Program-made: the position numbers and the translations under genes
Shown here: positions 34,785-42,691 of the stretch, piece after piece
How the letters are laid out: every line of letters begins with the position of its first letter
Numbering within the stretch: position 1 is the stretch's first letter
NCBI GenBank assembly: GCA_021815305.1
Contig: JAKAHC010000004.1
Location: 215,183-279,182 of the forward strand
From: Deltaproteobacteria bacterium
GTDB lineage: Bacteria; Desulfobacterota; Deferrimicrobia; Deferrimicrobiales; Deferrimicrobiaceae
DNA: 64,000 nucleotides
Direction: 5' to 3'
Notes under the pieces: generated by a model
The model's input: the letters and a program-made list of their open reading frames with translations, nothing else
What the model was told of the DNA's origin: nothing
Databases searched by the model: none

Positions 34785-35414
34785 ATGTCGGACACCGCAA
34801 GGAGCAGGGCGATCCTCGCCACCGCCTCCCGCCTTTTCGCGGAGAAGGGGTACGGGAACGCGACGACCTCGGAGATCGCACGCGCGGCGGGGGTCGCCGA
34901 AGGGACGATCTACCACCACTTCGGGAGCAAGGACGGGATCTTCCTGACGATCTTCGACGAGACGATCGAAGGGTATCTCGCCGGGATCGAGGAGCTGCTG
35001 GCCCGGGGAGCGACGGGGCGGGAAACCCTCTCCGCGCTCACGCGGTTCCAGTTCGACTACGTCTCCCGCCACAGCGAGCGGTACCTCATCCTGCTGCGGG
35101 ATTTCCCCGCCGACCTCACAGCGGGGCCCCTCGCCGAGGGCTCCCCCCAGAAGAAGAAGCTCGACCGGATCACGGAGCTCTTCCGCAGGGTCCTCGCCCG
35201 CGGGAAGGCGGACGGGACGCTTCACCTTCCCTTCCCGGTGCGGGACACCGCGGAGATTCTCCGCGGTTCGTTCTACGGCGCCATCCGGCTCAAGATGACC
35301 GGGCTCATCCGTGCGCCGCTGCCGCGCCTGGCCCGGATGCTGGAGTCGTACTGGATGGAGGCGCTCGCGCCGCAGCACCCCGCGGAGAGCCCCCGGGGGG
35401 TGCCGGGAGGCTGA
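34785..35414 (+). CDS. TetR/AcrR-family regulator
   Basis: FAEKGY..ATTSEIARAAGVAEGTIYHHFGSK helix-turn-helix. Confidence 0.92.
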   Translation: MSDTARSRAILATASRLFAEKGYGNATTSEIARAAGVAEGTIYHHFGSKDGIFLTIFDETIEGYLAGIEELLARGATGRETLSALTRFQFDYVSRHSERYLILLRDFPADLTAGPLAEGSPQKKKLDRITELFRRVLARGKADGTLHLPFPVRDTAEILRGSFYGAIRLKMTGLIRAPLPRLARMLESYWMEALAPQHPAESPRGVPGG

Positions 35415-35415
35415 A

Positions 35416-35838
35416 TCAGCCGTCCTTCCCCTTGTTCCCTTCCGCGAAGGCTTCGCGGGAGACGGGAAGTGCCGTGGATTGCCCTCGGGCCAGCACCCTT
35501 CCGTCGCCCGCGGTCACCGTGAGCTCGCACACCATGGACTGCCGCCCCTTGTGGACGATGCGCGACTCCCCGATCACCGTCTCGCCCGGCTTCGCCGCAC
35601 GGAAGACGTTCAGGCTCCACTGGACGCCCACCGCGTCGACGACGGCGTTCACCGAGAGGGCGAACGCCGCATCCGCCGCCGCGAACAGCAGCACTCCGTG
35701 ACCGATCTTATGCGCGTTCAGAAAGCGCTCCTCGACGGCGACCGACACCTTCGCATACCCTTCCCGCGCTTCGATCAGCTTCATCCCGAAATGCTGTATC
35801 AACCGATCCGCATGGAATATCTCCCGGACGCGCTCCAT
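35416..35838 (-). CDS. PaaI-family hotdog thioesterase
   Basis: FLNAHKIGHG..FAAADAAF. Confidence 0.85.
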   Translation of the reverse strand: MERVREIFHADRLIQHFGMKLIEAREGYAKVSVAVEERFLNAHKIGHGVLLFAAADAAFALSVNAVVDAVGVQWSLNVFRAAKPGETVIGESRIVHKGRQSMVCELTVTAGDGRVLARGQSTALPVSREAFAEGNKGKDG

Positions 35839-36356
35839 CACTCCCCCCGCCCGAGGTACGCCCTGGCGTACCCGACGTAATGGTCGGACAAAACCCTGTT
35901 CTTCTCCCCGGAGCCGGGACCGAGATCCCTGACGACCCTTCCCGGGACGCCCATCACGAGCGAGTTCGGCGGGATGACCCTTCCCGGGGACACGATCGCA
36001 CCCGCGCCGATCACGCTCCCCCGGCCGATCACGGCCCCGTCGAGGACGATGCACCCGATCCCGAGCAGGCACAGGTCCTCGATGACGCAGCCGTGCGCCG
36101 TCGCGCCGTGGCCGAACGTCACCTCGTCCCCCACCGTGAGAGGGAAATCCTCCTTGACGTGCAGCACGCACCCGTCCTGGATGTTGGTGCGCTTGCCGAT
36201 GCGGACCGGGAGGATGTCCCCGCGGATCACCGCGTTGAACCAGACGCTCGAATCCTCCCCGATCGCAACGTCCCCCACGATCCTGGCCCCTTCCGCCACG
36301 AAGACGGAAGGGTGCAGGCGGAGAGGGCCCACCCTGATCGGATACGGCAACGGCAT
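35838..36356 (-). CDS. Gamma carbonic anhydrase-family protein
   Basis: VWFNAVIRGD, TNIQDGCVLH, GHGATAHGC hexapeptide repeats. Confidence 0.9.
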   Translation of the reverse strand: MPLPYPIRVGPLRLHPSVFVAEGARIVGDVAIGEDSSVWFNAVIRGDILPVRIGKRTNIQDGCVLHVKEDFPLTVGDEVTFGHGATAHGCVIEDLCLLGIGCIVLDGAVIGRGSVIGAGAIVSPGRVIPPNSLVMGVPGRVVRDLGPGSGEKNRVLSDHYVGYARAYLGRGE

Positions 36357-36524
36357 CGAAGAACTCCGGACGGTCGTATCCCCGGATTATACTAAGGATC
36401 GGCGGCCGCGTTCGCCGGAAAGAGCCTCGGGGCTTAAGGGGTACGGCGGGTTCGCGCACCCCCGGGACAAGGATACGGCCCGGCGCGCGGTCCGCCGGGC
36501 CGGGATCGGACGCGCCGGCAAGGT

Positions 36525-36995
36525 TCACTGCGCGAGTTCGGACACCTCCAGCGCGTCCTCGAGCGCGATGCAGCCCCGCACGCTCATCGCCGCGGGACAC
36601 CGCGTCAGGTAGACCTTCATCGCCTCCCGCGCCTCTTCCGCCTTCCCCGCGGGAACCTTGAGCGTGTATCGCACCCGGATCCGCGTGATCCGCAGCACCC
36701 CGTCGACGTCCTCGATGTCCCCTTCCACGTCGGCCCGGAACCGGTCACCGAACGTGGGGATCTTGTTGCCGGCCAGCACCGTGGCCAGTGTCCCCATCAT
36801 TCAGGCCGCCACCGCCCCCACGACGTGGTCGAGCGTGGCCGCGTGCTCTTTTTCCGGCTCCACCTTGTAGAACTTCTTGATTCCCCCGTGCACCCCGTAG
36901 TACACGGGCTCCGGAAACCCCTCGATGTGTGCGATCCGCGTCGGCCCCTTCTCCCGGACGATGGAGATCCGGGAGGTGTGAACCACATTCCCCAT
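36525..36995 (-). CDS. OsmC-like protein with in-frame TGA (predicted selenocysteine at codon 65)
   Basis: Abutting same-frame ORFs 36801-36995 and 36525-36800; joined sequence GAVAA-U-MMGTL...TRCPAA matches the two-Cys OsmC layout; SECIS-like hairpin follows. Confidence 0.8.
36756..36795 (-). promoter_or_regulatory. Putative bacterial SECIS element of the OsmC-like gene
   Basis: CTGGCCA-CGGTGC-TGGCCGG upper stem, GGGGA/TCCCC lower stem; G-containing loop starts 19 nt after TGA. Confidence 0.6.
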
Positions 36996-37253
36996 GGTCG
37001 ATCCTCCTTTTTTTCCCGCCCTCTCCGCGCTTTGAGGTTGACTCCTGCAACCGAAACAATTATAAACCTGTTTTGCGCTTACACACGACCGTGCGATCGT
37101 GCAACCTTCCCGTGGCGCGACGCATCGTATCGCTTACTTCCGTGAAAAGGCGCATATTCGCACGCAAATCGGGCCGCGGGACGAAATGCCGGGAGGGAAA
37201 ACCGCACAATCCGGAAGGCGCGGCTTCGCGCACCGGGGAAGGGAGACGAAGCG

Positions 37254-38591
37254 ATGGCAAAACGTGGTTTCACCAGGCGTGACTTCCTCAAGGGTACCGG
37301 TGCGGGGCTTGCGGCGACGGGGTTGGGGGTCCCCCTCCTCCTGCCCCGCAAGTCGTACGCCGCGAAAAAGACGCTCAAGATCCTCCAGTGGAACCACTTC
37401 GTCCCCGCCTACGACGTTTGGTTCAACAACACCTACGTCAAGGAGTGGGGTGCAAAGAACAACACCGAGGTGATCGTCGACAACATCGGCCTGGCGGGAA
37501 TCAACGCCCGCGCCGCCGCGGAGGTGGGCGGGCAGAAAGGCCACGACCTGTTCCTGTTCCTCGCTCCGCCGTCGGCATACGAAACCCAGGTGGTGGACAT
37601 GAAGGAGGTCTACCAGGAGGTCGAGAAGAAGCACGGCAAGGCGCTTCCCCTCGCCGTCCACAGCACCTACAACCCGAAGACGAAGAAATATTTCGCCTTC
37701 TCCGACAGCTTCGTCCCCGACCCGATCAATTACCGGAAGGACCTGTGGGACGGAATCGGCATGTACCCCGACACCTGGGACGACGTCCGGGTCGGGGGGC
37801 GCAAGATCAAGGAGAAGTACGGGATTCCCGTGGGCATCGGCATGTCGGCCGAACTGGACACGGCGATGGCGATGCGCGAGCTGATGTACTCTTTCGGGGC
37901 CTCCGTGCAGGACGCGCAGGGCAACCTGATCCTGGACTCGAAGCAGACCCTCGAAGCGGTAAAGTTCGCCAAGGCCCTCTACCAGGAGGCGATGACCCCG
38001 GAGGTGCTCTCCTGGGACCCCTCCTCGAACAACCGGGCGATGCTTGCCGGAAAAGTCTCCCTGGTGCTCAACGCCATCTCCGTCACCCGGCAGGCGGAAA
38101 CCGACAAGATGCCGATCGGGAAAGACATCTGGCTCGCCAAGGCGGCCAAGGGCCCGGTCCGCAGGATGGGGACCGAGCACGTGATGAACTGCTACGTCGT
38201 CTGGAAGTTCGCCCAGAACGTCGACGGAGCGAAGAAGTTCCTCGTCGACTACATCAACGCCTTCCGCGGGGCGTTCCTCGCCAGCGAGTTCTACAACTTC
38301 CCATGCTTCCCGAAAACGGTGCCCGATCTCCAGAAGCTGATCTCCAACGACCCGAGAGCAACACCCCCGAACAAGTACGCCGTCCTCTCCGACGTCCTGG
38401 ACTGGGCGACCAACGTGGGGTACCCCGGGTATGCATCGGCGGCGATCGACGAGACGTTCAACACCTGGGTCATCAACACGATGTTCGCGAAGGCGGCGAC
38501 CAATACCTCCACCCCCGAGGCGGCCATCAAGGAAGCCACCGCGAAGTGCCGGCAGATCTGGGCGAAGTGGAAGGAAAAAGGACTCATCTAG
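37254..38591 (+). CDS. Carbohydrate ABC transporter substrate-binding protein (Tat signal)
   Basis: TRRDFLK twin-arginine motif; leads a CUT1 ABC operon. Confidence 0.88.
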   Translation: MAKRGFTRRDFLKGTGAGLAATGLGVPLLLPRKSYAAKKTLKILQWNHFVPAYDVWFNNTYVKEWGAKNNTEVIVDNIGLAGINARAAAEVGGQKGHDLFLFLAPPSAYETQVVDMKEVYQEVEKKHGKALPLAVHSTYNPKTKKYFAFSDSFVPDPINYRKDLWDGIGMYPDTWDDVRVGGRKIKEKYGIPVGIGMSAELDTAMAMRELMYSFGASVQDAQGNLILDSKQTLEAVKFAKALYQEAMTPEVLSWDPSSNNRAMLAGKVSLVLNAISVTRQAETDKMPIGKDIWLAKAAKGPVRRMGTEHVMNCYVVWKFAQNVDGAKKFLVDYINAFRGAFLASEFYNFPCFPKTVPDLQKLISNDPRATPPNKYAVLSDVLDWATNVGYPGYASAAIDETFNTWVINTMFAKAATNTSTPEAAIKEATAKCRQIWAKWKEKGLI

Positions 38592-38601
38592 GGGAGGCAA
38601 C

Positions 38602-39645
38602 TTGGCAACGGTAACGGTTCGTCAACTGGAAAAGCGGTTCGGCGACGTGCACGCGGTGGACGGGATCGATCTGTCCATCCAGGAGGGAGAGTTCCTGGTC
38701 CTGCTGGGCCCCTCGGGGTGCGGCAAGACCACCCTCCTGCGGATGATCGCCGGGCTGGAACGGCAGACCAGGGGCGATATCCTGATCGGGGGGCAGGTGG
38801 TGAACGACCTGCCCCCCCGCGCCCGGAAGATCGCCATGGTCTTCCAGAGCTACGCCCTCTACCCCCACATGTCGGTCTACGACAACATCGCCTTCCCCCT
38901 GAAGGCGCAGGGAGTGGAAAAACGCTCCATCCCGGAACGGGTGGAGCGCGCCGCCGCGATGTTCGGCATCGAGCGGTTCCTCAAGCGCAAGCCTCGCGAG
39001 CTCTCCGGCGGAGAACGGCAACGGGTGGCGCTGGCCCGCGCGGTTGTCCGTGAACCCAGTCTTTTCCTGCTGGACGAACCGCTGTCCAACCTCGACGCGA
39101 AGCTCCGGACGCTGGCGCGCGACGAATTGAAGCAGTTCCAGCGGCGCATCGGCACCACGACGATCTACGTCACCCACGACCAGATCGAGGCGATGGGGCT
39201 GGGGGACCGGATCGTGGTGATGAGCGGAGGCAAGGTGCGCCAGGTGGGCTCCCCGCAGGAGGTGTACGACGAACCGGAAGACACCTTCGTGGCGGGGTTC
39301 CTGGGTTCGCCGCCCATGAACCTGCTGCGCGGCGACAACTGCACCGTCGGCTTCCGCCCGGAGCGGTTTCTCCCCCTGCTGGCGCACGAGTCGCAGGAAG
39401 GGCTGGTCCCCCTCTGGTTCCGGATCGACCGGGTCGAGGACCTGGGGTCGGCCCGGCTCCTCTACGGTTCCCTCCACGACACCTTTCCCAACGAGAAGGT
39501 GATCGTGAGCGTCCCCTTCACGGTCCACATGGATTTCACCCCGGGCGAGGTGTACGAATTCGCGGTGAAGGAAAAGGAAATCAAGTTCTTCGACAAGGAA
39601 ACCGGCCGCCGCACGGAGCCGCGTCCTTTCTGGGTGCGCCGGTGA
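38602..39645 (+). CDS. Carbohydrate ABC transporter ATP-binding protein (MalK-like)
   Basis: TTG start after GGGAGG; GPSGCGKT, VFQSYALYPH, LSGGERQR, DEPLSNLD. Confidence 0.93.
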   Translation: MATVTVRQLEKRFGDVHAVDGIDLSIQEGEFLVLLGPSGCGKTTLLRMIAGLERQTRGDILIGGQVVNDLPPRARKIAMVFQSYALYPHMSVYDNIAFPLKAQGVEKRSIPERVERAAAMFGIERFLKRKPRELSGGERQRVALARAVVREPSLFLLDEPLSNLDAKLRTLARDELKQFQRRIGTTTIYVTHDQIEAMGLGDRIVVMSGGKVRQVGSPQEVYDEPEDTFVAGFLGSPPMNLLRGDNCTVGFRPERFLPLLAHESQEGLVPLWFRIDRVEDLGSARLLYGSLHDTFPNEKVIVSVPFTVHMDFTPGEVYEFAVKEKEIKFFDKETGRRTEPRPFWVRR

Positions 39646-40586
39646 AACCCGCCGCTTCGCCTCCCACGGACCCGGCCCGCCGCGCCGGGTCCGGAGGCGC
39701 GCTCGCCGACAACGAGAAGTGGCTCGGCCGCGTGATGATGGCCCCCGCCATCCTCTACATCGCGGCGCTGGTCGGACTGCCGCTGCTTCTCGCCCTGTAC
39801 TACAGCGTGAGCAACGTGACTGTAGGAAGCGCGGGGTGGCCCTCCTACGTCGGGCTTTCCAACTTCCGGCACGCCTTCGGGAACCCGACCTTCATCCGGG
39901 CGGTCTGGAATACGATCTTCTTCGCCGTCGTCTCCATGGCCATCGTGATGGTCCTTGGGACGATCCTCGCCCTTTCTCTCCTTAAGGATTTCCGCGGAAA
40001 ATGGTTCGTACGGCTGCTGATCCTCCTCCCGTGGGTCGCCCCGATCTCCCTGGGGACCATCGGGTGGCTCTGGATGTTCGACTCCGTCTACAGCGTGATC
40101 AACTGGACCGCGCAGTACTTCGGGATCTTCGGGAAGAGGACCTGGCCGGTCTGGCTGGGCCAGCCGACCCTGGCCATGGCGTCGGTCATCACGGTCCAGG
40201 TGTGGCGCCTCCTCCCCCTGGCCACGGTGATCCTGCTGGGGGGCTTGAGCAGCATCCCGAAGGATATCCAGGAGGCGGCACTGGTGGACGGCGCGAGCGT
40301 GCTCCGGCGCTACGTCCAGATCACCGAGCCCCTCATGCGCCCCATCGCCCTCGTGGCGCTGCTGTTCGGCCTGATCTTTTCCTTCACCGACATGATCGTG
40401 ATCTACGTGCTGACGCGCGGGGGCCCCTTCGACACGACCCAGGTGCTGGCGACGCTCGCCTTCTTCACCGGGATCGACGGCGGGGACCTCGGCGGGGGCG
40501 CCGCGATCGCCCTGTTCCTCCTTCCCGTGCTGGCGGCGTGCGTGATCCTGATCCTGCGGTTCGCCCGGAAAACGGAGGTTACCTGA
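39642..40586 (+). CDS. Carbohydrate ABC transporter permease
   Basis: YVGLSNF, EAALVDGAS (EAA loop), LTRGGP. Confidence 0.92.
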   Translation: MKPAASPPTDPARRAGSGGALADNEKWLGRVMMAPAILYIAALVGLPLLLALYYSVSNVTVGSAGWPSYVGLSNFRHAFGNPTFIRAVWNTIFFAVVSMAIVMVLGTILALSLLKDFRGKWFVRLLILLPWVAPISLGTIGWLWMFDSVYSVINWTAQYFGIFGKRTWPVWLGQPTLAMASVITVQVWRLLPLATVILLGGLSSIPKDIQEAALVDGASVLRRYVQITEPLMRPIALVALLFGLIFSFTDMIVIYVLTRGGPFDTTQVLATLAFFTGIDGGDLGGGAAIALFLLPVLAACVILILRFARKTEVT

Positions 40587-40590
40587 TACG

Positions 40591-41445
40591 ATGAGCGCGA
40601 AACGCGGAACCGTCACCTCACCCGCATGGCGGGTGGTTCACTTCGGAGCGATCTCGGCGTTCGTGCTGTTCGCGGCGTTCCCCTTCTTCTGGATGGTGAT
40701 CTCCGCCTTCAAACAGACGCTCGACCTGATGAACCCGAACAACAACCCGTTCGTGTTCAACCTGCCCCCGACAATGGTGCAGGTCAAGATGCTCTTCGAG
40801 GGGACGGAGTACACGAAGTGGCTGTGGAACACCGCGTGGGTGGGGATCCTCGTCGTGATCATCACCCTCCTGCTCGCCGTTCCCCTCGGGTACGGACTTG
40901 CGCGCCTGTCGGGGAAGACCGGAGAGCGGCTCGGGATCATGATCTTCCTCACCTACCTCGTTCCGCCGACCATCCTCTTCATCCCCCTCTCGAGAGTGAT
41001 CAGCTACCTGGGATTGACCGACTCCCTGTGGTCGTTGGTGGTCGTCTACCCAAGCTTCACGGTGCCGTTCTGCGCGTGGCTGCTGATGGGGTTTTTCAAG
41101 GTCATCCCGCCGGACATCGAGGAGGCCGCCATGATCGACGGGCTCTCCCGGTTCGGGGCGTTCGTGCGCGTGGTCCTTCCGGTTTCCATCGCGGGGCTGC
41201 TCACCACGATCATCTTCAGCTTCACGCTGGTGACGCAGGAGTTCGTCTACGCGCTCACCTTCATCAGCTCGTCGTCGAAGTTCACCGTGAGCGTCGGGGT
41301 TCCGACCTTCCTGGTGCGCGGGGACGTCTATTTCTGGGGGTCGATGATGGCGGCGTGCTTCATCGCGAGCTTCCCCATCGCCGTCCTCTACAACTTCTTC
41401 GTCGACCGGTTCATCGCCGGGTTCACTGTAGGGGCGGTGAAGTAG
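40591..41445 (+). CDS. Carbohydrate ABC transporter permease
   Basis: EEAAMIDG (EAA loop), ends GAVK. Confidence 0.92.
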   Translation: MSAKRGTVTSPAWRVVHFGAISAFVLFAAFPFFWMVISAFKQTLDLMNPNNNPFVFNLPPTMVQVKMLFEGTEYTKWLWNTAWVGILVVIITLLLAVPLGYGLARLSGKTGERLGIMIFLTYLVPPTILFIPLSRVISYLGLTDSLWSLVVVYPSFTVPFCAWLLMGFFKVIPPDIEEAAMIDGLSRFGAFVRVVLPVSIAGLLTTIIFSFTLVTQEFVYALTFISSSSKFTVSVGVPTFLVRGDVYFWGSMMAACFIASFPIAVLYNFFVDRFIAGFTVGAVK

Positions 41446-42691
41446 CCACGGCGGAGGCGGGTTGCCGCCCGGAGTCGGCCCTCGCCTCCAGGAGACCGGC
41501 GGCGAATGGGACCAGCATCAGGGACGCCACCAGGGCGATCACCCCTCTCCACCCCCAGCGCTGGTATGCGTACCCGCCCGCCGTGATCCCCGCGGTGCCG
41601 CCCAGGTAGTAAAACAGCAGGTAGAGGGAGTTCGCGCGCCCCCGGCTGGCGGTGAGTTTCCGGTTCAGCGCGCCGACCGCCGCCGTGTGGACGACGAAGA
41701 ACCCCGCGCACATTCCCACGAGGGACACCCCCACCAGGGCGAGAAAAGGCAGCAGCGCGCAAAGGACGGACAGCGCGAACACCACCGCTCCCAGCGCCAT
41801 CGTCAACCCGTTCCCGAGGCGGTTCCCCAGCCTGCCGGCGACCGGCCCGATCCCCACCCCGACGAGGTACGAGAGATAGAGCATCGTGATGTACTGGGTG
41901 GGGAGCCGGAAAGGAGGCCCCGCAAGGTAGAAGGGAAGGTAGTTGAAGACGGTGGAGAAGGCCCCCAGCGCGGCGGCCCCCACGGAGAAGAGCCGCAGCA
42001 GATCATGCCGCGACAGCAGCGCCGCGAAACCGGCTTCCTCCTCCGGGACCTCCTGCCCCGCCTCCTCCCGGGGGAGCCACCGCCCCGCGTCCACGGTGCC
42101 CGCAAGCAGCAGGACCGACGCGGTGACGAAGGCGTACCGCCAGTGGAGGGGAGGGTGGATGAAACCGGCGAGGAGCCGCCCGCCCAACCCCCCGGCCACG
42201 GTGGCCGAGACGTACGCACCCATCGCGATGTTCAGGCGCTCGGGGGGCAGGCGCCTTACGAGGTACACCATGAGGCACGTGGTGAGCGCGGGGATGAACA
42301 GCCCCTGCGCGAACCGCGCCGCGACCAGGAGGGGGAAGTTCCGCGTGGCCGCGCACAGGAACCCGCACAGGGAGACGAAGGTTCCGCCGAAAAGGATGAT
42401 CGGGCGCGCCGGGAACCGGTCCACCAGCCGCCCGAAGGGGAGCGTCGACAGGGCGATCCCGAAGATCACCGCGGAAACGGACAGGGAGGCGCGCGCCGCG
42501 TCGATGCCGAATTCCCGGCGGAGCACCGGGAGCACCGGCTGGGTGAGGTAGATCGTCGCGAAGGTGGCGGCCACCAGAAAAAAAACCCGCGCCTGGAGGG
42601 ACTTCGACCCCAGGCCCGCAGCCTCCCCCGCCCCTTCCCCGCATTTTGCGATAAAATTCCGGTTCACTATTGAACTTTCCTCCGTTTCCAT
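41423..42691 (-). CDS. MFS transporter (YnfM-like)
   Basis: IYLTQPVLP, GGLGGR, NSLYLLFYYLG; 12 TM. Confidence 0.85.
   Translation of the reverse strand: METEESSIVNRNFIAKCGEGAGEAAGLGSKSLQARVFFLVAATFATIYLTQPVLPVLRREFGIDAARASLSVSAVIFGIALSTLPFGRLVDRFPARPIILFGGTFVSLCGFLCAATRNFPLLVAARFAQGLFIPALTTCLMVYLVRRLPPERLNIAMGAYVSATVAGGLGGRLLAGFIHPPLHWRYAFVTASVLLLAGTVDAGRWLPREEAGQEVPEEEAGFAALLSRHDLLRLFSVGAAALGAFSTVFNYLPFYLAGPPFRLPTQYITMLYLSYLVGVGIGPVAGRLGNRLGNGLTMALGAVVFALSVLCALLPFLALVGVSLVGMCAGFFVVHTAAVGALNRKLTASRGRANSLYLLFYYLGGTAGITAGGYAYQRWGWRGVIALVASLMLVPFAAGLLEARADSGRQPASAVATSPPLQ

Follow-up and report, generated by a model that had tools for sequence, protein, structure and literature searches.

The window, i.e. 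the whole 64,000-nucleotide stretch of Deltaproteobacteria bacterium DNA that was analysed, carries on its minus strand two abutting open reading frames that share one frame: a 64-residue ORF (36801..36995) that closes at a TGA, and a 91-residue ORF (36525..36800) that begins at the codon directly after it. When this TGA, the only one in frame within the 156 codons of the joined gene, is translated as a residue (U), the read-through product is a 156-residue protein that reads ...LDHVVGAVAA-U-MMGTLATVLAG...YLTRCPAAMSV.... An earlier note on this DNA had described the two same-frame ORFs split by a single TGA and the joined protein DHVVGAVAA-U-MMGTL...YLTRCPAA, and the ORF list and the read-through translation bear out both. 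The upstream ORF is preceded by an AGGAGG ribosome-binding site (Table 1); direct reading of the sequence gives no AGGAGG-like site upstream of the ATG at 36800 that opens the second ORF. Scanning 36300-37300 gave no promoter-like site, and the two terminator-like sites in the same interval lie on the opposite strand and are within shuffle expectation. Across the TGA the sequence is identical in contigs of three additional DNA runs, all of one study, and no alternative base is listed, although no single listed piece covers the whole stretch; among the runs listed for it, none is of RNA. Of 98 related loci only 11-17, all from the closest relatives, have the same neighbours as this gene (flanks of 1.5-2.5 kb). 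A redox partner was sought among the gene neighbours in these flanks of the 98 loci and none was found, and no functional link is drawn.

Table 1. Features of the predicted selenoprotein gene and its surroundings in the window.
Feature	Position	Strand	Basis
Predicted OsmC/Ohr-type selenoprotein gene, one CDS of 156 codons (ATG 36993-36995)	36528..36995	minus	ORFs and read-through; Pfam OsmC; codon-position variability
AGGAGG ribosome-binding site, 7 nt 5' of the ATG at 36995	37003..37008	minus	direct sequence reading
In-frame UGA, codon 65, probably read as Sec at the peroxidatic position	36801..36803	minus	TGA in 174/179 loci; alignment to OsmC/Ohr Cys
Extended element, in which GGGGA (36791-36795) pairs with UCCCC (36756-36760) as an outer helix enclosing the core	36756..36795	minus	minimum-energy fold; conservation below that of the core
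Core SECIS-like hairpin, 7-bp stem CUGGCCA/UGGCCGG, apical loop CGGUGC	36769..36788	minus	fold, pairing, fourfold-site entropy
Cys133 codon TGT (C-P-A-A), presumed resolving Cys	36597..36599	minus	near-invariant in both alignments; aligns to the Cys-Pro of 1ukk/6d9n
Stop codon TGA	36525-36527	minus	ORF list
Hexapeptide-repeat protein and 4HBT thioesterase, downstream of the gene	35419-36356	minus	
TetR-type regulator	ends near 35411		
ABC transporter operon (solute-binding protein, ATPase, two permeases), upstream and divergent	37254-41442	plus	
MFS transporter	41426-42691		

The joined protein belongs to the OsmC/Ohr superfamily by both sequence model and fold. Residues 56-144 match Pfam OsmC (PF02566) with 40.7 bits against a gathering threshold of 27.5 (E = 3.3e-10). 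An AlphaFold2 model of the joined protein, built on 21 sequences, has a mean pLDDT of 87.1, and Foldseek against the PDB yields 60 matches with E <= 0.001, every listed one of which is OsmC, Ohr or OsmC-like; identity to these known structures in the structural alignments is 9-19%. A profile of 33 family members aligns with the Thermus thermophilus OsmC 1ukk (E = 7e-7) and places column 65 on the Cys of the A-G-C-F motif and Cys133-Pro on the Cys-Pro of G-C-P-V. Similarly, a profile of the close members places column 65 on the S-A-C-F Cys of the Ohr 6d9n and Cys133 on its V-C-P-Y Cys. We take the aligned residues of 1ukk and 6d9n to be the peroxidatic and resolving cysteines of OsmC/Ohr; in the known enzymes the peroxidatic Cys lies on the central helix and the resolving Cys about 65 residues on, and residue 65 and Cys133 fall on these two in both alignments. 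The two profile alignments support the proposal of the earlier note that Sec replaces the peroxidatic Cys, and they place Cys133 on the later resolving Cys-Pro which the note mentions for OsmC/Ohr proteins. Assignment below the superfamily level is another matter: the joined protein scores 16.5 bits against the NCBIfam OsmC model (TIGR03562, cut-off 85.8) and 16.8 bits against SACOL1771 (TIGR03563, cut-off 166), and the Ohr model (TIGR03561) is unmatched. Since these scores fall far under the subfamily cut-offs and the NCBIfam model NF041052 is also unmatched, the exact activity of the protein cannot be taken from a characterised subfamily.

Codon 65 is nearly always TGA among the relatives of this gene. 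Strong matches occur in 19 of 41 related genomes, the gene's own included, and each match contains a single TGA, which falls at the same codon of the alignment. When species-representative genomes were scanned, 527 relatives came up, and all of the best 80 have TGA at codon 65; a scan of metagenomes that started from a homologue of the Cys form gave 297, and among the best 80 of these 75 have TGA and five TGC. Together the 179 related loci show TGA in 174, TGC in five and TGG in none; among the near relatives there are about 35 Sec forms to each Cys form. In protein databases the codon-65 column holds C in 10 and W in 10 of the 20 close full-length homologues. More distant homologues (29-59% identity) have C in 25 of 32, W in one, and A, D, S or G in six, three of which also lack Cys133; a catalytic role for this position therefore does not extend to all relatives. 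The earlier note had proposed that homologues be searched for Cys or TGA at the aligned position, and both are found there, TGA and TGC in the related loci and C in half of the close and most of the distant database proteins. Homologues with Cys at the position aligned to the UGA are one mark of a bacterial selenoprotein gene; a UGA conserved in orthologues, with coding constraint on both sides of it, is a second, and is also found.

The coding constraint is apparent from variability at the three codon positions. The 179 genes reduce to 165 distinct ones, of which six with lengths outside 140-166 residues (mis-set starts or truncated contigs) were dropped, leaving 155 Sec genes and four Cys genes. 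Mean minor-allele fractions at positions 1/2/3 are 0.083/0.070/0.439 for codons 2-64, upstream of the TGA, and 0.193/0.153/0.469 for codons 77-150 downstream of it. The third positions are thus far more variable than the first and second on both sides of the TGA, as expected if both halves are coding and under purifying selection.

The genome, which is 97% complete, contains the machinery for selenocysteine insertion. Presence of selA, selB, selC (tRNA-Sec) and selD is a further mark of bacterial selenoprotein synthesis, and one that the earlier note had asked for; all four were found above their curated cut-offs (selA 538.7 bits, selB 301.9 bits, tRNA-Sec 74.1 bits, selD 313 bits). The selB search also brought up an EF-Tu-like match with an apparent TAG in frame; this candidate was rejected, since the TAG is the tuf stop codon. 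The selD gene of this genome (G000:C5:107630-108625, locus L010, outside the window) is a selenoprotein gene too: its single in-frame TGA falls within C-A-G-U-A-S-K, and in the GC-rich hairpin that comes after this TGA, GGU again lies in the loop. Across the related genomes selA is present in 18 of the 19 that carry the OsmC-type gene, the exception being a genome only 59% complete, and four of the five genomes without a selA match also lack the OsmC-type Sec gene; these related genomes are non-independent samples.

Bacterial SECIS elements follow a distance rule in which the loop lies roughly 16-37 nt from the UGA. Here a stem-loop with a G-containing apical loop stands directly 3' of UGA65; 12 nt separate the UGA from the stem, and 19 nt separate it from the first base of the loop. 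The minimum-energy fold includes the outer GGGGA/UCCCC arms, so that folding bears out the hairpin of the earlier note (CTGGCCA/CGGTGC/TGGCCGG with outer GGGGA/TCCCC, loop 19 nt after the TGA). The stability of the fold is unremarkable: the 77-nt fold of the window sequence is no better than its shuffles (z = -0.91; 41 of 200 shuffles at least as stable), and an Rfam scan of 36000-37500 at E <= 10 gave no SECIS family, its sole match being a chance snoRNA of 14.8 bits. In DNA this GC-rich a lone fold is unremarkable, and statistical support therefore had to come from related sequences.

That support comes chiefly from synonymous sites. In the 155 distinct Sec genes the entropy of fourfold-degenerate sites is mostly 1.3-1.96 bits across the gene, but over codons 69-75 it is 0.90, 0, 0.11, 0, 0.58, 0 and 0.74 bits, and these codons lie exactly over the hairpin; third-position variability in the hairpin region (codons 66-76) is 0.12. 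Codon 72 encodes T, A, G, M or R, yet in all but two rows of a 142-row alignment its third base, which is a base of the hairpin loop, is G; the exceptions to the final G are AAT in locus L197 and GGT in loci L177 and L188. Among 142 distinct 54-nt segments the 7-bp core stem is paired in 98.3% of 994 cells, as against 2-53% in a control in which the pairing partner was slid. Two of the seven pairs show changes on both sides, C-G to U-A in four sequences and G-C to C-G in one, and most other stem changes keep wobble pairs (e.g. GCC to GCU opposite G). The core stem is nearly invariant, and with double changes in five of the 994 cells the covariation support is thin; because the stem hardly varies, the argument for an RNA element rests mainly on the synonymous-site suppression. 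The outer helix is paired in 80.3% of cells, and its pair 12-45 is GC in 46, AU in 23, GU in 16 and other in 55. On the pattern of suppressed silent change, then, the hairpin is taken to be constrained at the RNA level.

A reading of the locus that dispenses with recoding is that of two separate small genes, with termination at UGA65 and reinitiation at the AUG next to it (UGA-AUG-AUG) to give polypeptides of 64 and 91 residues that together rebuild an OsmC-like fold without its catalytic residue. Two ATG codons do directly follow the TGA, and many database records list the 91-residue piece, and N-terminal pieces that end at residue 63-64, as separate proteins. However, the Met-Met pair is also kept in the Cys forms (C-M-M-G-T), which identifies it as a protein motif rather than a start signal, the second ORF has no ribosome-binding site, and full-length single-chain homologues have Cys exactly at codon 65. 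Separate genes would moreover leave unexplained both the suppressed silent variation across a hairpin whose stem starts 12 nt past the TGA and the co-occurrence with selA. This reading is highly unlikely.

Slightly less probable again is that the UGA is read as Trp or another standard residue, through an alternative code or near-cognate suppression, rather than as Sec. The evidence for it is the W stored at codon 65 in half of the close database homologues. Since TGG is absent from all 179 loci, these W entries are most simply a TGA that gene callers translated under a Trp-reading code. Furthermore, this gene and 7 of 18 relatives from related genomes end in a terminal TGA, so that TGA is a stop in these genomes; the homologues that replace the TGA codon have Cys and not Trp at position 65, and the genome has the full Sec machinery. 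A pseudogene, or a sequencing or assembly error, in which the TGA would be a nonsense change in a former Cys codon, requires only one base change from TGC or TGT but has a negligible chance of being correct, being effectively refuted by the conservation of the TGA in 174 of 179 loci from many records, by the purifying selection on both halves, and by the identical letters in contigs of three further runs with no alternative listed.

The recoding signature, the family and fold, the alignment with known redox residues and the Sec machinery are all present at this locus or in its genome. It thus appears, from comparative sequence evidence, that the TGA within the gene almost certainly encodes Sec at the catalytic site and that the two short ORFs are one gene. 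The fuller reading, that 36528-36995 is a single selenoprotein gene encoding a 156-residue peroxidase of the OsmC/Ohr superfamily with Sec as the predicted catalytic residue 65, is very probably correct; selenium incorporation and peroxidase activity are what this reading predicts of the product. The hairpin 3' of UGA65 (36769-36788, loop CGGUGC) would bind SelB carrying Sec-tRNA(Sec), and the ribosome would then insert Sec at UGA65 rather than terminate; the second TGA, without such a hairpin, would act as the stop. OsmC/Ohr peroxidases are homodimers in which the peroxidatic residue attacks a hydroperoxide, a resolving Cys follows and a dithiol re-reduces the enzyme. By analogy the selenoprotein would likely form a homodimer in which the Sec65 selenolate attacks a hydroperoxide to give a selenenic acid, Cys133 resolves this to a selenenyl-sulfide, and a dithiol donor re-reduces the latter.

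The few Cys forms appear to show what happens to the element when Sec is lost. Four of the five TGC loci have a GCC to TCC change that breaks the hairpin stem and two of the five have ACA at codon 72, while in one TGC locus the hairpin is still intact. A quick FastTree tree of 173 rows, in which four distant Cys homologues served as the root, requires six Sec/Cys changes, at least four of which are forced by well-supported branches. We infer, the direction of change included, that Sec has probably reverted to Cys repeatedly and that the SECIS has then decayed. The branch thus displays in one alignment both the constraint that a SECIS likely places on synonymous sites within a gene and its apparent decay after reversion from Sec to Cys, and it supplies a natural Sec/Cys pair for testing what selenium contributes to catalysis of the OsmC/Ohr type.

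The gene is poorly served by public annotation. Most of the best 120 database matches are pieces of 90-119 residues that start right after the TGA, and many representatives of 50%-identity clusters end at residue 63-64 or start at residue 66; evidently gene callers cut the gene in two. In 10 of 20 close full-length homologues W stands at the Sec position, and some pipelines evidently used a code in which TGA is Trp. Public collections consequently store the gene as a 91-residue C-terminal piece, as N-terminal stubs of 63-64 residues, or in a W form. Because the gene is mis-split and NF041052 is blind to it, hundreds of genomes would under-count their selenoproteins and lose a probable peroxide-defence enzyme from their annotation. 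In contigs of three metagenome runs the summed depth rises from about 16-28 to 105-230 (5- to 10-fold) over 36762-36806, and the assemblies break there; this spike fits a near-identical SECIS stretch common to several co-occurring organisms.

Selenoproteins of the OsmC type are known as predictions. Lists of prokaryotic selenoprotein families have included an "OsmC-like protein" from the Sargasso Sea study onward, which gives three sequences, COG1765 and the motif UxxT (Zhang, Fomenko & Gladyshev 2005, PMC1088965); the GOS analysis of 2008 lists five Sec and 161 Cys sequences (PMC2398784), and an OsmC-like selenoprotein also appears in the Olavius symbiont study of 2007 (PMC1976440) and in reviews of 2022 and 2026 (PMC9312934 and PMC13188914). 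Within the library searched in full text, all mentions of Sec OsmC proteins come from such catalogues of predictions or from reviews, and no experimental work on one was found. The description of the protein by the earlier note as a hidden selenoprotein thus stands for public annotation but not for the kind, since OsmC-like selenoproteins have been published from 2005 on (PMC1088965).

The published family resembles the present one in its OsmC superfamily membership (PF02566), in a predicted Sec in place of the redox Cys, in a SECIS directly downstream and in having Cys homologues. It differs in its UxxT motif, its COG1765 (YhfA type) assignment and its marine origin (three Sargasso and five GOS sequences). 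The present branch has U-M-M-G-T, so that Gly rather than Thr stands at +3 from Sec, with Thr at +4; this Gly does not vary in the close alignment and is conserved to 90% or more in the wide one. The branch profile matches OsmC 1ukk at E = 7e-7 versus 0.026 for E. coli YhfA 1ml8; among the source names of the close homologues, COG-style labels of both kinds occur. NF041052, "OsmC-related (seleno)protein", is likewise a curated model, built for proteins of the OsmC type that are known in Sec form, but it does not match the joined protein at E <= 1 and so falls short of its 95-bit threshold. Its hits in 41 genomes were without exception OsmC paralogues other than this gene; they have no internal stops, and no score exceeds 95 bits. 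A second OsmC-family gene of the same genome (G000:C7:206831-207127, locus L044 1486-1920, minus strand, some 8 kb ahead of where the window begins) encodes 144 residues with its Cys in C-V-M-T (CxxT); its Pfam OsmC score is 62.8 bits, and its matches to SACOL1771 and NF041052 (33 bits) stay below the cut-offs of those models.

The thiol peroxidases of the OsmC/Ohr superfamily (1ukk, 1qwi/1nye, 6d9n and 1n2f among others) have the same fold and the same positions for the peroxidatic residue, on a long helix, and for the resolving Cys-Pro; they have Cys at the peroxidatic site, whereas Sec is predicted in the present protein, which also has conserved motifs of its own in its N-terminal third (Y-G-V-H-G-G-I, F-Y and T-L-D-H). 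By the motif and NF041052 tests the branch is not clearly the catalogued OsmC-like one. By their labels, the records of the 527 relatives come from several phyla (Deferrimicrobiaceae and other former Deltaproteobacteria, Thermoanaerobaculia, Actinomycetota, Nitrospirota and Methylomirabilota). Whether these form a separate, mostly-Sec branch of the OsmC superfamily with the motif U-x-x-G-T, set apart by motif and model tests from the catalogued marine UxxT/COG1765/NF041052 type, is evenly balanced. On the separate-branch reading, the SECIS hairpin may be almost identical in nucleotides among all the relatives, and a common selenoprotein of anoxic soils and sediments would be missing from both the curated models and the published catalogues. 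The OsmC selenoprotein kind is already known, and what is added to it is modest: a widespread, mostly-Sec branch that is routinely mis-annotated and that the curated models miss.
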